Shown: positions 99-57,459, counted from the first letter of the stretch. The stretch is 64,000 nt of DNA from a virus (IMGVR_UViG_3300020151_001109:1-64000); one strand, 5' to 3'. The notes: generated by a model not told the origin, from the letters alone. Program-made: numbers and translations.

Positions 99-620
99 TT
101 AAATTTTAGGGAATTTTTCAAAAAACTCCTCATATCGTGAACCGTTGTCTTTTCCAGGATTTACCTTCCAAGAAGACCAGTCGCTTCCTTCATTAGTCAT
201 GTAGTAGGCAATCTGAGCGTTCTTTACCGGATCAAATAATTCCAGGTCATTCTTAAGTTCAAACTTCTCTCTTCTATCCTTTCCTAGGCTACCCAGCATA
301 TTGATCTGGAAAATCCCGTAAGAGTTATCTCCAGTGCTGAGGTCCCCGTTGTGGGCCTTTGGACGGCCATTTGACTCTTTCTTAGCGACTGCCCAAGCAA
401 TCCTAAGAGCTTGTCCCTTAAAACCTACCTCACTTAGGAGGCCCTTAAGGTCGTTGTCAGAGAGCTCTGTAGCTCCCCTATATAGATCTAACCCAGTTTT
501 TACTGGGGTAGCTGCCGTTACTGTGGAACCGTCTGATTCAGCTGCTATAGCTGGAGGGATCCACGGAAGTGCGGCGCATAATGCTAGTATTCCAATTTTC
601 TGTTTTGCATTAAAATTCAC
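99..620 (-). CDS. Secreted lysozyme-like/SLT lytic transglycosylase
   Basis: Signal-peptide-like N-terminus (basic, hydrophobic, AIA|AE). Catalytic-type motifs AVAKKES and SYGIFQIN, and WSSW near the C-terminus. AGGAG SD before the GTG start. Confidence 0.8.
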   Translation of the reverse strand: MNFNAKQKIGILALCAALPWIPPAIAAESDGSTVTAATPVKTGLDLYRGATELSDNDLKGLLSEVGFKGQALRIAWAVAKKESNGRPKAHNGDLSTGDNSYGIFQINMLGSLGKDRREKFELKNDLELFDPVKNAQIAYYMTNEGSDWSSWKVNPGKDNGSRYEEFFEKFPKI

Positions 621-757
621 ACTATCTCCTAGGCTAGAAGGCCAGTTCTTACTTTACGCGCCTGTCACCCGCATAAAGCAATCCGGCCTATGTCTGCCAG
701 ATTCGTACTGCAACCCTTTTGTTACGTAGTTAGTGATGGCCCAGTTGCCTGAGCCAT
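621..757 (-). ncRNA. Structured 5' leader, candidate cis-regulatory RNA/riboswitch
   Basis: Three hairpins (736-757 with a GCAA tetraloop; 680-703; 651-679), plus a possible closing stem that competes with an SD-sequestering hairpin. Confidence 0.55.
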
Positions 758-763
758 GGATAT

Positions 764-793
764 ACCGTAGCAGTAACTACAGGGGGTCTGCAA
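764..793 (-). promoter_or_regulatory. Sigma70/HrdB-type promoter for the transglycosylase
   Basis: TTGCAG-N18-TACGGT with an extended TG. The predicted TSS (~757) coincides with the 5' end of the first hairpin. Confidence 0.6.
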
Positions 794-839: not shown

Positions 840-1139
840 ATGGCAAAATGTGCAATTTGTGGTAATGAAGCCCAATTTAAGTTCAATAACCCGGGAGCAG
901 AGGTTCAATACTTCTGCATAGACAATCTGCCTTGGTTTGTAAACACTAGTTTTCTACCCCCACATGTAGAAGTTTTAAATAAATCAAAACCTACGGGAGG
1001 AGCTAAAAATGAGAGTCGAAAGAATAGCGACAAAACAGATACACCCAGTTCCGAACAAAGTGCACCAGCCTCGGGGCCCCTTCCCACCGGAAGTACTGGC
1101 GGAACCGAAGATAGTGTGGGACTACCAGAGACAGCCTGA
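840..1139 (+). CDS. Hypothetical protein (N-terminal CxxC)
   Basis: SD AAAGGCGG and upstream -10-like TAAACT (808-813). The C-terminal part overlaps the next gene. Confidence 0.55.
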   Translation: MAKCAICGNEAQFKFNNPGAEVQYFCIDNLPWFVNTSFLPPHVEVLNKSKPTGGAKNESRKNSDKTDTPSSEQSAPASGPLPTGSTGGTEDSVGLPETA

Positions 1140-1272
1140 AGACGGCGGGGATGACGTCCCTGTTGAGGGCACAGCTCAAAACAACTTTAAAGCAACAAAA
1201 TGGTTTAGATGCAATGACTGTTCAACCCTTGTTTCTGAAGCACAGTTAGAAACCCACACCTGCGAGGAGTAA
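1009..1272 (+). CDS. Hypothetical zinc-finger protein
   Basis: Strong SD GGAGGAG; C-terminal CNDC...HTC. Confidence 0.7.
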   Translation: MRVERIATKQIHPVPNKVHQPRGPFPPEVLAEPKIVWDYQRQPEDGGDDVPVEGTAQNNFKATKWFRCNDCSTLVSEAQLETHTCEE

Positions 1273-2216: not shown

Positions 2217-2442
2217 GAAAAAGTCAGCAAAGCGTGAGCTAACGCGTATCCAAAAACGAATTCAGCTCCTAAGTAACGATGATCTCCTTGCTTGGGCTGA
2301 AACCTCCGTTTATGATATAGCTAGAAACATGTCATCTTGGAAAAAACAAAAAAACATCTTTTACTTAGATGAGGCTAAACTGGCCGCAGAAGTACTTTTT
2401 GAAGCATTAGAAGTAGTACATCGGAGAGAGAATGTCAAGTGA
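2194..2442 (+). CDS. Hypothetical helical protein upstream of the terminase
   Basis: ATG at 2194 after GGGGCAGCGG; overlaps the terL start. Confidence 0.6.
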   Translation: MIQIKFSKKKSAKRELTRIQKRIQLLSNDDLLAWAETSVYDIARNMSSWKKQKNIFYLDEAKLAAEVLFEALEVVHRRENVK

Positions 2443-4129
2443 AGATTCATACGTCCCTACCGAACTTGCTGACGAGTATATAGAAGACTTTCTTGACGAA
2501 GAGGATGAAGACGAACTTGAAGAGTTTGAAGAAGACGAAGAAGTTGAAGAAACTGGCGATCAGTATTCTTATAATAATCCTAGCAACGATTTTACTCCCC
2601 TTAGCGACGAAGACCTTGAAAACGAAGATGATGGGTTGGATGAGCTCTCTAGAGAATTCGTTGCATCACTTGTAGATAAAATCATGTCTTTTATGAAGTT
2701 GCTGGTCGGACACGATCTGCACCCATATCAAAAGCCATTAGCTAGAAGAATTATTGAATCTGTAATCATTAATGACGGCGAAGAAATAACCGCCTTAGCA
2801 TCACGTCAGTCTGGAAAGTCTGAGACTGTTGCTGATACCGTTGCCACCTTAATGGTCATATTACCTAGACTAGCTAAGATGTACCCAGATCTATTAGGCA
2901 AGTTTGGTGATGGAATTTGGGTAGGTATGTTCGCCCCTGTTCAAGCACAGGCAGAAACCCTATACTCAAGAACCGTATCTAGACTTACGAGTGAGCATGC
3001 TTTAGATATTTTGGGTGACCCAGAAATTGACGACTTTACAGCAAAAAGCCCTGGAGTTACTAGAAACATCAAACTAAAGAACTCAGGATCTACCCTGATG
3101 ATGATGACAGCAAACCCAAGAGCTAAGATTGAATCTAAGTCTTTCCACCTCATGATTATTGATGAGTGTCAAGAAGCTGACGACTTTATTGTGGCTAAGT
3201 CTATTTCTCCTATGGGAGCTTACTACAACGCCACTATGGTGAAGACAGGCACACCAACTAACACTAAGAATAACTTTTACCGAGCTATCCAACTAAACAA
3301 GCGTAGGCAGACCGGTCGTAATGGAAAGCAGAACCATTTCCAATGGGACTGGAAAGATGTTGCTAAGTTCAACGTTAACTATGAGAAGTTTATCCGTAAA
3401 GAGATGCTACGCGTTGGTGAGGAATCTGATGAGTTTCAGATGTCATACAACTGCAAGTGGCTCCTAGAGCGAGGAATGTTTGTAACCTCTACGGTTATGG
3501 ATGACTTGGGGGATACCTCTCAAGAAGTTCAAAAGTCATACCATATGTCACCAGTTGTGGTGGGTATCGATCCTGCCCGTAAAATGGACTCCACGGTTGT
3601 TACTGTCGTTTGGGTTGACTGGGATCGACCAGATGAGTTTGGTTACTACGACCATAGAATCCTAAACTGGTTAGAAATCCAGGGAGATGACTGGGAAGAG
3701 CAGTATTTTCAAATTGTAAATTTCTTAGGAAACTATGACGTTTATGCGGTTGCTGTAGATGCTAACGGTGTCGGTGATGCTGTAGCCCAACGGCTTAAGA
3801 TGCTATTACCTAGAGCGGAGGTAATCTCTGTAACTTCTAGCCCAACAGAGCAATCTAAGCGCTGGAAGCACATGCAAGCCCTAATTCAAAGACAACTTAT
3901 TTCCTGGCCAGCTCACGCTAAAACTAGAAGACTTCGTACTTGGAAGCGTTTCTACCAACAAATGGTGGACGCTGAAGTTCAGTATAAAGGCCCTAACTTT
4001 TTGGTAGCTGCCCCAGATGAGGCCCATGCCCACGATGACTTTGTAGACTCCTTGGCCCTGGCCTGTTCCCTAACTCAAGAGTTAGTTATGCCTACTGTAG
4101 AAGTAAGCTCATCCCCGTTTTTTAAGTAA
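2432..4129 (+). CDS. terL: Terminase large subunit
   Basis: Walker A ASRQSGKS, Walker B IIDECQ, nuclease motifs VGIDPAR, VDANGVG and HDDFVDS; acidic N-terminal extension. Confidence 0.93.
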   Translation: MSSEDSYVPTELADEYIEDFLDEEDEDELEEFEEDEEVEETGDQYSYNNPSNDFTPLSDEDLENEDDGLDELSREFVASLVDKIMSFMKLLVGHDLHPYQKPLARRIIESVIINDGEEITALASRQSGKSETVADTVATLMVILPRLAKMYPDLLGKFGDGIWVGMFAPVQAQAETLYSRTVSRLTSEHALDILGDPEIDDFTAKSPGVTRNIKLKNSGSTLMMMTANPRAKIESKSFHLMIIDECQEADDFIVAKSISPMGAYYNATMVKTGTPTNTKNNFYRAIQLNKRRQTGRNGKQNHFQWDWKDVAKFNVNYEKFIRKEMLRVGEESDEFQMSYNCKWLLERGMFVTSTVMDDLGDTSQEVQKSYHMSPVVVGIDPARKMDSTVVTVVWVDWDRPDEFGYYDHRILNWLEIQGDDWEEQYFQIVNFLGNYDVYAVAVDANGVGDAVAQRLKMLLPRAEVISVTSSPTEQSKRWKHMQALIQRQLISWPAHAKTRRLRTWKRFYQQMVDAEVQYKGPNFLVAAPDEAHAHDDFVDSLALACSLTQELVMPTVEVSSSPFFK

Positions 4130-29900: not shown

Positions 29901-32774
29901 ATTAGCACTCAAAATATGATTGAGCCAACTGATGCCGAGGGCATTGCGGAAGCTTTTGTAAAGAAAATGAATATGGTCGAAAAGATCATAATGCGAGTTG
30001 CTGGTCACACCGACAAAATTAAAAAAAATGGCGAAGGATTTGCCGATGCTATGGCCGGACGCAGGCCAGGAAGCAGTAACTTAGGTTTAGGAACCGTAGT
30101 TGGAAGCTTTACCCGCAATGAAAAAATAATGGGCGGGGCCGCAATAGCTGGCGGAACATTTATGAGCATGGCTCCAAATACCATGTCAGCTGTTGCGCAA
30201 AGAATGTATGCCGACTCTGTTGCAGGCCTAAGCGGCATGAAATCTCGAGAAGTAATTACCCAGTCTAACCGTTTAGTTAACGGAGCTACAAGTGCTGGTG
30301 GCCCTACTGCGGCTGCATCAAACTTGTTTTATCAGGGTGGATACTCAGCAAGTTCTGTAAGCTCTAAAAACATAATGTCTCAGCTTGGCGGATTAAGCGC
30401 CATTACTGGTGGGACTAACGAACAAACTGCTTCAAGTATTGCCGGAATAAACGGTGCCCTATTTTTACGGCTAGGCGTAAACATCAGAGATGATAAAGGC
30501 AATCTAAAGCCTATGAACCAGATCATCAACTCAGTATATAACATGCTGTATGGTGGTCGAGCAATTACAGAAGAACAAGCAGCTAAACTTCTAAACCCAA
30601 ATTCTAAGGGTTACTCAACTCTTATGTTGATCTGTGGTGGGGATGCAAACCTATTTTCAACAATTGCCATGGGTGTCATAACTCGAGCACGAAAAGGAAA
30701 AGGTCTTACAAAGAAAGATCTAGGAAGTGCACAGTCAGCTTTAACTGCTATGGGCGTAGAGTCTGGGAGCCCAACAAGAGCAAACTTTAGATTTCAAGCT
30801 GGACAAAATGCGGCATTGCAGTCTACTGAAGGTGGTCTTGTTGGTGGTTACAATACATCTTTAAATGTAGTTGGAGCACTTAATCAAGGATTTGCAGATC
30901 TTGCTTCTGCACTTGGGCCAGTAACCGGCGGCTTAATGGGATTAAAGGGAGTTCTTCAATCACTACCTAATGCCGGAAATATGGGCGGAACTATATCCGG
31001 CATTGGAAGCATGGGTATGGGAATAGCCAGCACAGCTATGAACGCGGCTATCATGGGTCGTGTAATGGGTATAGGAAGATTTGGTGCTGGAAAAAGTACT
31101 GCGCAAAATATTGCAGCTGGTGGTACTAAAGGTCGTTTTGGTTTAGGTGGAAAACTTGGTGGCGCCTCTTTACTAGGCGTTCTTGCCCAGCTAGGTATTA
31201 ACCAGATTCCAGGAGTTAAAAATAATTCAGAGAGCGGTATTGTTAAGTATGGCAATATGGCCGCAACTATGGGTATTGGAGCTGCTAGCGGCGCAGCATT
31301 AGGATCTATGATCGCCCCAGGTATTGGAACGGCTATTGGAGCCGTACTTGGAACTGGCTATGGTTTATATCAAGGTTTGTCTGGCCAAGGGGGGCCTAAT
31401 GACGAACACGGGATTGGTGGGGATAACAACATGCCCGGCAAAGGATCTGCCGGAACATTCTCTTTACCGGTTCCTGAAGGAACTCAAGTATCCTCGCACT
31501 TTGGTCGTCGTAAAGGCGGAAATGGAATTAGCTCTAATCACCGTGGTATGGATTTTCGTGTTGGCGAAAATACAAACATTACCGCTGCTGCTGATGGCGT
31601 TGTTACTGAAGTTGGTAACGGCGGTGGTTATGGAAACTACGTAATTATTAAGCACGGCACTAAGTCAACCTTGTATGGTCACTTAAATCGTGCAATGGTT
31701 ATGGTCGGTCAATCAGTTAAAAACGGCCAAGTAATTGCTAAGTCCGGTGGCCGTAAGGGAGCCCCTGGAGCTGGTGCGTCTACTGGCCCACACCTTCACT
31801 TTGAAGTTAGAGATAATGGTGGACGTGGTGCGCAAGGTCGCGTAGATCCTAAGGGCTTCTTTGGTAAAGCAGCTAACTTTATAACCAAGACTTTTAAATC
31901 TGGATTAAATATGGTTAAAAACGTATTTTCTAGAGCTACTGGTGGGCTATTTGGTAGGCAAGAGGCGTTTCATAACTCTCAACTAGGTCCTAGCCCCACA
32001 AGTTTAAGCGGATTAAGTAGCGCAGCGCTGTCTTCTTTATTAGCTGGGACATTAGGTTCAGGTAGGGAGATTGGGTCTGAAGATCTTGATAAGTTTACTA
32101 CCGGATACTCCCGCAGAAATGTAGCAATCTCTGAGGGCATTTCCGGAACATTAAATAGTTCTGATGACGCCGTTTCTTCTCAACTTCCCGGAGGAAGTAG
32201 GGCAGCCTATATTCGTATGCTTAGAAACGCCGGGTTTTCTGGTAAATCTTTAGAAACCGCATTTGCCGTATCTCTTGCAGAATCTAGAGGTAATCCTAAA
32301 GCATTTAATAATAAGAAACGTGACCTATCTTACGGCTTGTTCCAAATCAATATGAAAGATGACGATCCAAAGAGCCCAAATATGGGTCGCAATCGTCGTA
32401 AGCAATTCGGAATTAAAAACAACGAAGCTTTATACAACCCCAACACAAACATACGCGCTGCCTATGAAGTTTCTGACAAGGGTGGTTGGTGGAAACAATG
32501 GGCTACTTATAACGACGGAACATTCCTTAAGTATATGGACGACGCTAAGCGTGCAAAAGAGTCTGCTGGCATTGGTGGGGGTCAGGAGTCTTACTCTGGT
32601 GGGATGATGTCTTCTGGAACCTCTACAAAAGAGGCTCACCATAAGGGAGAAATAACCGTAAATATGAACGTAAGTATTGCTAGTGCGAGCCAAGCTGATA
32701 CTGAAAGACTATTCAAAGAGTTTAGTAGAAAACTTAAAAGAGCTATTGAAGAGAACGAAGTTAGGACTTACTAA
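29901..32774 (+). CDS. Tape measure protein with M23 peptidase and SLT/lysozyme-like domains
   Basis: Ala/Gly-rich helical N-half; M23 motifs HRGMD, YGHL and HLHFE; C-terminal AESRGN...SYGLFQIN. The SD fits an ATT start at 29901; the first ATG is at 29916. Confidence 0.88.
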   Translation: MSTQNMIEPTDAEGIAEAFVKKMNMVEKIIMRVAGHTDKIKKNGEGFADAMAGRRPGSSNLGLGTVVGSFTRNEKIMGGAAIAGGTFMSMAPNTMSAVAQRMYADSVAGLSGMKSREVITQSNRLVNGATSAGGPTAAASNLFYQGGYSASSVSSKNIMSQLGGLSAITGGTNEQTASSIAGINGALFLRLGVNIRDDKGNLKPMNQIINSVYNMLYGGRAITEEQAAKLLNPNSKGYSTLMLICGGDANLFSTIAMGVITRARKGKGLTKKDLGSAQSALTAMGVESGSPTRANFRFQAGQNAALQSTEGGLVGGYNTSLNVVGALNQGFADLASALGPVTGGLMGLKGVLQSLPNAGNMGGTISGIGSMGMGIASTAMNAAIMGRVMGIGRFGAGKSTAQNIAAGGTKGRFGLGGKLGGASLLGVLAQLGINQIPGVKNNSESGIVKYGNMAATMGIGAASGAALGSMIAPGIGTAIGAVLGTGYGLYQGLSGQGGPNDEHGIGGDNNMPGKGSAGTFSLPVPEGTQVSSHFGRRKGGNGISSNHRGMDFRVGENTNITAAADGVVTEVGNGGGYGNYVIIKHGTKSTLYGHLNRAMVMVGQSVKNGQVIAKSGGRKGAPGAGASTGPHLHFEVRDNGGRGAQGRVDPKGFFGKAANFITKTFKSGLNMVKNVFSRATGGLFGRQEAFHNSQLGPSPTSLSGLSSAALSSLLAGTLGSGREIGSEDLDKFTTGYSRRNVAISEGISGTLNSSDDAVSSQLPGGSRAAYIRMLRNAGFSGKSLETAFAVSLAESRGNPKAFNNKKRDLSYGLFQINMKDDDPKSPNMGRNRRKQFGIKNNEALYNPNTNIRAAYEVSDKGGWWKQWATYNDGTFLKYMDDAKRAKESAGIGGGQESYSGGMMSSGTSTKEAHHKGEITVNMNVSIASASQADTERLFKEFSRKLKRAIEENEVRTY

Positions 32775-46481: not shown

Positions 46482-46734
46482 TATTGAGTATTCAGACTAT
46501 CCGTTTAACGGAACTCAGCTATGTAATGATTTAAATTCTAATCTTTTCTTTCCTGAGGAGTACACCGACCCAGAGGCACTTAGAGAAGCTAAAAGCATTT
46601 GTTCTTCTTGTCCGCTCGTTAATCAATGCCTGGAGTACGCCATAAAGACTCCGTGGCTAGACGGAATTTGGGGCGGAACCACTCCTCGTCAAAGAATACG
46701 AATGCGTGGAGCTAAAAATAGGGCTAATAGATGA
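46471..46734 (+). CDS. whiB: WhiB-family transcription factor
   Basis: C......LFFP...AKSICSSCP...CLEYA...GIWGGTT..QR. Confidence 0.9.
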   Translation: MELNIEYSDYPFNGTQLCNDLNSNLFFPEEYTDPEALREAKSICSSCPLVNQCLEYAIKTPWLDGIWGGTTPRQRIRMRGAKNRANR

Positions 46735-57141: not shown

Positions 57142-57459
57142 TTGTCAGACGTTAACAACCCGTCTTGGGCTTGGAGATATGAAGCAAAGTGTCGAGGAGA
57201 AGACACTGAGATATTCTTCCCACCACGGGATAAAAAATTATACAAACCCATAGCTGACTCAGCTAAGGCAATTTGCTACGGTCGAGACGGCAGGCCCCCC
57301 TGCCCCGTAAGAAAGCAGTGCCTAAAAGAGTCTATTAAGAATGATGAGCTTCATGGTATCTTTGGTGGCATGAGCCATCGGGAACGAAACGCTCTTAAAC
57401 GAAAGTACACCAAACTGGGATATACCTTGGAAAAATGGCTAGAGGAGAAGGAAAAATAA
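57142..57459 (+). CDS. whiB: WhiB-family transcription factor
   Basis: W...AKCRGEDTEIFFP...AKAIC.......CPVRKQCL...GIFGGMS.RER; TTG start after GAGGTG. Confidence 0.9.
   Translation: MSDVNNPSWAWRYEAKCRGEDTEIFFPPRDKKLYKPIADSAKAICYGRDGRPPCPVRKQCLKESIKNDELHGIFGGMSHRERNALKRKYTKLGYTLEKWLEEKEK

Follow-up and report, generated by a model that had tools for sequence, protein, structure and literature searches.

A covarying RNA leader before the lytic transglycosylase gene of a freshwater phage lineage

The Streptomyces gene rpfA is reportedly controlled by a c-di-AMP riboswitch of the ydaO class, an RNA whose architecture is pseudo-two-fold, multi-helix and pseudoknotted. Purine-type riboswitches are built on a three-way junction with a J2/3 strand and complementary L2 and L3 loops. 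Phages are known to use translational operators, among them the gene 32/gp32 and RegA sites of T4 and the coat-protein sites of RNA phages. In Corynebacterium glutamicum, ydaO/c-di-AMP controls a cell-wall-related peptidase (PMC9960051), and in Mycobacterium tuberculosis the 5'-UTR switch of rpfB is a transcriptional attenuator with an intrinsic terminator (PMC6009663). Riboswitches of the c-di-GMP-I class occur in the lysis modules of Clostridioides difficile prophages (PMC3649979), and a motif called YjbJ (WRC-39-1), a weak riboswitch candidate, lies before a Streptococcus lytic transglycosylase gene, ~30 nt upstream of its Shine-Dalgarno sequence (PMC11109978). A bulk catalogue of IMG/VR published in 2023 lists 8,495 unnamed candidate structured RNAs, with 879 csRNAs just upstream of genes of known domain, and includes candidate GP32 leaders (PMC10690425).

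Here we describe a leader of ~137 nt (about 757-621, minus strand) that ends at the Shine-Dalgarno sequence and GUG start of an SLT_3 gene. It lies in a window of 64,000 nucleotides (IMGVR_UViG_3300020151_001109:1-64000), which is the start of a 99.5-kb virus record rated complete; the sequence is carried by lake and freshwater metagenome runs, and a blastn search against cultured phages gave no match. Since the phage encodes three WhiB-family proteins (window 46516-46701 and 57172-57396, both on the plus strand, and 85798-86010 of genome G000, minus strand), its host is very probably an actinobacterium. The SLT_3 gene (99-620, minus strand) is an open reading frame of 173 aa that starts with GUG; its product has a lysozyme-like SLT_3 domain behind a signal peptide that can be cleaved (AIA-AES), and matches the Pfam families SLT_3 at E=2e-16 and SLT at E=1.8e-6. 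Direct reading places an intrinsic terminator for the cassette, a 7-bp G+C stem followed by a U run, at 52-82 of the minus strand; the stem also scored on the plus strand and may therefore work in both directions. A second SLT_3 domain is found together with a Peptidase_M23 domain in a 957-aa open frame (31536-32507, plus strand), so that the SLT_3 fold is present twice in the phage; the 957-aa protein is likely a virion-associated wall hydrolase.

The leader lies ~1.8 kb from the large terminase gene (2432-4129) and occupies part of an intergenic region (621-839) between the SLT_3 gene and a small divergent gene that begins at 840. Two small conserved divergent genes (840-1139 and 1009-1272, plus strand) overlap here in different frames. 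One encodes a CxxC...FCxxHLP protein that adjoins many leaders but not all, and the other an 87-aa protein of the form MRVERIxTKQxHPVP...C-terminal CxxC that is kept in all relatives examined. Neither belongs to a PHROG or to a significant Pfam family, and a PHROGs search with the SLT protein and its two neighbours found no family for any of the three.

An earlier note, made from the sequence of the window, had proposed the promoter TTGCAG-N18-TACGGT, a first hairpin of 9 bp capped by GCAA, two abutting hairpins and an outer helix that could close them. All of these elements are present. The -35-like hexamer TTGCAG (788-793, minus strand) and the -10 hexamer TACGGT (764-769), which is of the TAnnnT type, can be read directly and are separated by an 18-nt spacer. 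Within the spacer lies a near-invariant motif, TGTAGTTACTG (771-781), whose final TG forms an extended -10 element. The promoter is conserved among the relatives described below: TTGnnn stands upstream of the -10 hexamer in 80 of the 83 distinct copies scored, at a distance of 18 nt in 77 and of 19 nt in 3, and some copies have TTGACA as their -35 hexamer; a TG occurs one base before the -10 hexamer in 82 of 83; and although 14 different -10 hexamers are found, all of them conform to TAnnnT. An extended -10 element of the form TAnnnT is the usual one for the actinobacterial housekeeping sigma factor. The spacer motif, TGTA-N2-TAC(T/C)(G/A), precedes the leader in 83 of the 84 distinct copies and may be a transcription-factor site or a phage-specific promoter element. 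A string similar to TGTA-N2-TACTG was also seen in the promoters of SLT cassettes that have no long leader (L025, L007, L012 and L019).

The -10 hexamer ends 3-7 nt upstream of the first base pair of the first hairpin, P0. From this promoter geometry the transcription start is predicted at ~757 ± 2, at the foot of P0, which would make P0 the hairpin at the 5' end of the mRNA. Contigs from two metatranscriptome libraries, belonging to different studies, cover 569-739 and 487-707 and so span the border between leader and coding sequence. This is consistent with co-transcription of the leader and the gene, with the reservation that contigs from RNA libraries may include carried-over DNA. They end at 707 and 739, and none covers 740-1252; because contigs cannot show transcript ends, this coverage gives nothing firm on the start site.

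Downstream of the predicted start, P0 (736-757, minus strand) pairs 757-749 with 744-736, including one G-U pair, around the GNRA loop GCAA (748-745). A linker strand, CACUAACU (728-735), and the 5' strand of an internal loop, ACGUAACAAA (718-727), lead into a three-way junction (638-717) formed by helices P1, P2 and P3. P1, the outer helix, pairs 717-713 with 642-638 and 710-708 with 645-643, and thus contains the AAGG..CAGU/ACUG..CCUU helix that had been proposed (717-714/641-638 and 710-708/645-643). P2 (703-696/687-680) carries the loop AGACAUAG at 695-688, and P3 (679-670/660-651) the loop GGUGACAGG at 669-661. The two arms, 703-680 and 679-651, abut, the junction strands being 5, 0 and 5 nt long. 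The 3' strand of the internal loop, CUAGCCUAGG (628-637), overlaps the invariant Shine-Dalgarno sequence AGGAG (626-630), which lies 5 nt before the GUG start codon (618-620). The RNA of the leader folds with a z-score of -3.68, and none of 200 dinucleotide shuffles folds as well. ARAGORN detected neither a tRNA nor a tmRNA, and a scan for terminators found no terminator-like site inside the leader and none between the leader and the gene.

IMG/VR contains hundreds of relatives of the SLT gene, but at the DNA level the leader is common to only the closest 8 of the 80 relatives that were fetched. A covariance model, R1, was built from these 8 close relatives and was used together with two independent pattern scans. 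In this way 168 leader copies, 84 of them distinct, were found in freshwater phage contigs, never more than one copy to a contig, and the genome of this phage has a single copy. Every distinct copy with enough downstream sequence stands 5 nt before the GUG of a homologue of 171-184 aa with a signal peptide, and all 84 distinct copies start with GUG. The upstream synteny is also kept, with a small MRxxRIxTKQGHPVP gene and often, before it, the CxxC...FCxxHLP protein, and the copies therefore all come from a single phage lineage. More remote homologues, those less than about 60% identical, share this stand-alone type of cassette but with a short leader, either ~20 nt or one small covarying hairpin. 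The long leader is therefore an elaboration inside one sub-lineage. In L005, L007 and L012 a single covarying hairpin lies ~70 nt before the SLT start codon, ahead of the Shine-Dalgarno sequence; such hairpins of the short leaders read GCGCCA-GAAA-TGGCGC, GCCAC...GTGGC or GGCTCC...GGAGCC, and in them P0 may have a simpler counterpart.

When 185,579 species genomes of bacteria and archaea were scanned twice for an exact pattern, no copy came to light other than one on a probable phage contig. The first gave no matches and the second gave two, one of which arose by chance. The other, L201 (JBBRXZ010000018.1), is a 17-kb contig with a full copy of the leader in a 'Candidatus Saccharimonadales' MAG. 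As it shares the terminase/SLT synteny of the window, it is most simply a phage contig and has probably been misbinned, though it could conceivably reflect a link to a Saccharimonadales host. The leader was thus found only before SLT_3 genes and only in phage contigs, and not in the several gene contexts, or with the cellular occurrence, that are typical of riboswitches, if not a strict part of their definition. Among 75 pattern matches in metagenomes, 20 failed the model and are not the leader. Twelve of these (L211, L215, L224, L232, L233, L238, L239, L244, L250, L255, L278 and L280) belong to an unrelated repeated element and the rest are chance matches. The unrelated element, seen in at least 12 contigs, is ~280 nt long, highly conserved and non-coding in appearance, and contains ...AAAGGGTTGCAGATAGGTACAGACATGCTGCTTATCATAACAAGCA.TGGTGACAG..., which the scan matched by chance.

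The fold of P0, P1, P2 and P3 is shown by covariation. Compensatory changes were already present in every helix among the 8 close relatives; among 9 sequences, 18 of the 34 modelled pairs had changed on both sides, and in an alignment of 58 distinct rows this rose to 25 of 34. Canonical pairs fill 95.9% of the cells of that alignment, as against 79% when it was shuffled and 22-49% with slid partners. Compensation was found for 8 of the 9 pairs of P0, 7 of the 8 of P2 and 8 of the 10 of P3. P1 is compensated at two positions in the 58 rows, one with GC and AU in 43 and 11 rows and the other with GC, AU and UA in 31, 26 and 1, and at two further positions the L201 variant compensates a U-G and a G-C pair. 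Since the 58-row alignment had been fitted to the model, covariation was tested again on a plain, independent MAFFT alignment of 20 representatives, from which RNAalifold recovered all four helices, P0, P1, P2 and P3; of the 27 pairs it predicted, 21 were compensated. What is more, G-U cells outnumber A-C cells by 212 to 25, and pairing is poorer on the antisense strand (86.2% canonical), from which it follows that the structure is one of RNA in the sense orientation of the gene, as the G-U pairs of the window had first suggested. A mutual-information scan with APC correction found no pseudoknot, its signals being the known helices, a clade signal and one isolated pair inside the coding sequence.

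The stems drift while the unpaired bases hardly change. The comparison was made among copies with 39-55% identity in their proteins and 30-52% at four-fold synonymous sites. Over the leader, such copies show 74-83% identity at unpaired positions and 45-69% at paired ones. Because the identity of the unpaired bases exceeds that of both the four-fold sites and the protein, the leader must be held more tightly than the enzyme; its loops, junction and internal loop are far more constrained, and the unpaired bases are under purifying selection. There are ~60 such conserved unpaired bases. Near-invariant are the sequence ACGUAAC-AAAAG-GUUGCA, the L2 loop CAGA-N-A-N-A, the L3 loop GUGACAG, UCUAGCCUAGGAGA in the 3' strand of the internal loop, and the GUG start; the 5' strand of the internal loop is almost invariant in the 84 distinct copies, the sole variant seen being CAACGAAAC for CUACGUAAC. 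The observation that both hairpin loops contain GACA is correct for the window, but among relatives only the L3 loop GUGACAG is invariant, while L2 follows CAGA-N-A-N-A, or is AGAAAGAG in one subgroup, and what the two loops share is a GA(C/A)A core. The leader accordingly has the aptamer-like conserved fold, the covariation and the conserved unpaired bases by which riboswitches are generally recognized.

How the ribosome-binding site might be hidden was judged from thermodynamic folding. The earlier note had pictured a switch between the 3' strand of P1 and a local CUUCU/AGGAG hairpin over the Shine-Dalgarno sequence. That hairpin does exist in the window, but most relatives have a C-A mismatch in it and it is rarely predicted (a mean of 0.5 expected pairs, with at least three in only 7 of the 84 copies); the hairpin is not conserved, and the switch as the note described it is not supported. 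A better candidate for hiding the site is a long-range helix, PS, in which the linker (735-728) is predicted to pair with 627-620, that is, with the last two bases of the Shine-Dalgarno sequence, the spacer and the first base of GUG. PS is part of the minimum free energy (MFE) fold in 11 of the 12 copies displayed and contributes at least five expected pairs in 65 of 84. The mean predicted probability of being unpaired is 0.05 for GUG and 0.28 for GGAG.

Two types of linker occur. Type A, (A)CACUAACU, faces AGAUAGUGU, and its AUAGU spacer is invariant and paired. Type B, GCACCUCC, pairs in another register with GGAG and GUGC; here the middle three bases of the spacer vary and are looped out, and position +4 is always C. 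Each type thus matches its own tail, a type-specific pattern that pairing would predict. PS shows no column-wise covariation, just two sequence states in different registers, and for that reason it is a helix that we infer, one that would hide the ribosome-binding site.

PS coexists with P1, so that the two are not mutually exclusive. In the three folds shown with P1 enforced PS was retained, and PS and P1 flank the invariant internal loop of 10 x 10 nt. The P1-enforced fold lies a median of 3.8 kcal/mol above the MFE and equals it in at least one copy. At this cost P1 is marginal and would gain from a stabilising partner. The conserved fold would accordingly represent a closed state, with the ribosome-binding site hidden and P1 only marginally stable, in which a bound ligand or protein could tip the balance. 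With no terminator in the leader, control of translation initiation is more natural than transcriptional control. Two local hairpins, GUAAC/GUUGC and GGUUGG/CUAGCC, are favoured over P1 by energy. Two natural variants, GAAAC and GGGACUGC, break the first of these, whereas P1 is compensated, and the hairpin was therefore rejected as a conserved state. No support was found for an alternative 'open' structure, and natural variants break the competing local hairpins.

An out-of-frame AUG at +11 to +13 of the reading frame (608-610, minus strand) is invariant in 84 of the 84 leader-bearing copies and absent from leaderless homologues. It opens a mini-ORF of 5-18 codons and has a predicted probability of 0.86 of being unpaired. 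Around it the codons vary, but codon 4 reads NAU throughout (N, D, H or Y) and codon 5 begins with G in every copy, so that it is the nucleotides that are selected. Possibly the AUG forms part of the switch, as a decoy or standby start.

Taken together, we think it probable that the leader is a new cis-acting RNA family that serves as an effector-gated translational switch for the secreted lytic transglycosylase; both the gating and the existence of an effector are things we infer. In such a mechanism the extended -10 TAnnnT promoter would start the mRNA at ~757. The first 22 nt would fold into the stable 5' hairpin P0, which probably protects the mRNA, and the next 8 nt would pair with the 3' half of the Shine-Dalgarno sequence, the spacer and the first base of GUG as PS. 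Through the invariant 10 x 10 nt internal loop PS would stack on P1 of the three-way junction, both of whose arms carry conserved loops, and the closed fold would hide the ribosome-binding site. The invariant loop and junction domain could then receive an effector, which would stabilise the closed fold or open it and in this way set the amount of enzyme. The effector may be a small molecule, which would make the leader a riboswitch; we prefer this slightly, and tentatively, to a protein, because the junction has several stems, because ~60 unpaired bases are constrained, and because the control of actinobacterial wall hydrolases by c-di-AMP offers a parallel, to which the orphan rpfB switch adds another. 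A more specific version, possible but somewhat doubtful, is a phage-only riboswitch that senses a signal of the host envelope or of growth, such as a cyclic dinucleotide, or else a precursor or fragment of peptidoglycan, and times the Sec-exported transglycosylase, the +11 AUG acting as decoy or standby start.

Within the same effector-gated reading, the effector could instead be a phage or host protein, and we regard this as less likely still. The leader would then be a translational operator, with the same gate, at which a phage or host RNA-binding protein, or the enzyme's own precursor, represses or activates initiation. Phages often time late functions through translational repression, and proteins commonly bind to long, irregular helices in which non-Watson-Crick positions occur in tandem. 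Metabolite riboswitches are not usually distributed as narrowly as this leader, which is confined to one phage lineage and one gene family and is missing from the cellular genomes that were scanned; this favours a protein operator and speaks against a small molecule. The GA(C/A)A core shared by both hairpin loops also suits a protein. On the other hand, ~60 conserved unpaired bases exceed the need of most protein operators, and no partner protein was found among the candidates considered. The CxxC neighbour is not adjacent to the leader in several copies, and a search for it in a leader-bearing genome of 90% completeness found none, although sensitivity for so small a protein is limited. Nor is there a loop regulon, since in the rest of the 99.5-kb genome the hairpins that have a GTGACA or CAGAnAnA loop are intragenic and occur in about the number expected by chance.

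An unlikely alternative to the effector-gated switch is that nothing binds, and that the leader stabilises the mRNA and permanently throttles a dangerous muralytic enzyme, or times it by folding kinetics or temperature. The closed, RBS-hidden fold is indeed the predicted ground state, with no alternative fold supported, and for other SLT cassettes a short leader with one hairpin is enough; yet a simple throttle would leave unexplained both the covarying three-way junction and the near-invariance of ~60 unpaired bases while the stems and the protein drift. It is improbable that the RNA serves another function, as a self-cleaving or processing element or as a stable small RNA that is released from the 5' end and acts in trans. 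The metatranscriptome contigs do consist mainly of leader sequence plus the gene's first 50-130 nt, although contigs cannot rank abundance, but no Rfam ribozyme or small RNA family was matched, the junction strands, 5, 0 and 5 nt long, are not those of a hammerhead core, no terminator separates leader from gene, the element always abuts the Shine-Dalgarno sequence and start codon, and a search of the genome for trans or antisense targets gave only matches of 11-14 nt (E>=3). Least credible of all, to the point of being almost negligible, is an element of the DNA, that is, an operator array, packaging site or origin in the divergent region by the terminase genes. Its location, intergenic between divergent genes and ~1.8 kb from the large terminase gene, and the unusually conserved promoter spacer would suit it, but the stems conserve pairing rather than sequence, the G-U excess and the drop in pairing to 86% on the other strand are those of RNA, and the leader tracks the SLT gene and not the terminase.

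Freshwater actinobacterial phages are abundant and almost wholly uncultured, and they now have a strongly supported RNA element that is selected more tightly than the protein downstream of it. Should a ligand be sensed, the leader would represent a new class of riboswitch and a rare phage-only aptamer, through which the release of a wall-degrading enzyme is tied to the physiology of the host; should it be a protein that binds, a lysis-related gene would have a new translational operator. At about 145 nt the leader is compact and open to tests on synthetic copies, and which positions tolerate change can already be read from the 84 natural variants.

With Rfam 15 at the gathering score there was no match in the whole 64-kb window, and at E<=10, for the window and two divergent relatives, the only matches were two in one relative, both noise: OmrA-B, with 13.6 bits for a threshold of 40, and mir-21, with 11.5 bits for one of 52. 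The leader is therefore not ydaO, as the earlier note had judged from the missing consensus, nor GEMM, a known ribozyme or a curated orphan motif, and the expectation that it would prove an unclassified RNA was borne out. A full-text search of the literature found it described nowhere. An anonymous entry in the IMG/VR catalogue (PMC10690425) is possible, even likely, in view of its abundance, but the catalogue states no structure or role for it.

Like ydaO (RF00379), the leader is a structured 5' element before a secreted muralytic enzyme in Actinobacteria or their phages and would place a potentially lethal hydrolase under RNA control, but it gave no ydaO match even at E<=10, and in place of the ydaO fold it has P0, a simple three-way junction and an internal loop. 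It resembles the purine-type aptamers in that a marginally stable P1 closes two hairpins with conserved distal loops; it differs in that P2 and P3 abut with no J2/3, and in giving no Rfam match, and since L2 (CAGAnAnA) and L3 (GUGACAG) have no Watson-Crick complementarity, no kissing-loop is evident. The c-di-GMP-I riboswitches of C. difficile prophages are a precedent for phage-borne riboswitches at lysis-related genes. They belong to a widespread bacterial class, GEMM-I, whereas the leader has neither a bacterial counterpart in the scanned genomes nor a match in Rfam. With the phage translational operators it shares its place in a phage mRNA, over a ribosome-binding site according to the predicted fold, and its single gene, but it is much larger and more intricate and has no known cognate protein. 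The YjbJ motif is another orphan, likewise structured and likewise placed before a gene for a lytic transglycosylase, though in another phylum and, as described, ~30 nt upstream of the Shine-Dalgarno sequence. The rpfB 5'-UTR switch of M. tuberculosis (PMC6009663), also an orphan of narrow range, has an actinobacterial target that resembles a lytic transglycosylase; the phage leader is unrelated to it in sequence, is phage-encoded, has no terminator and likely acts on the ribosome-binding site. Among structured cis-regulatory leaders and riboswitch candidates, the leader is a new RNA family.
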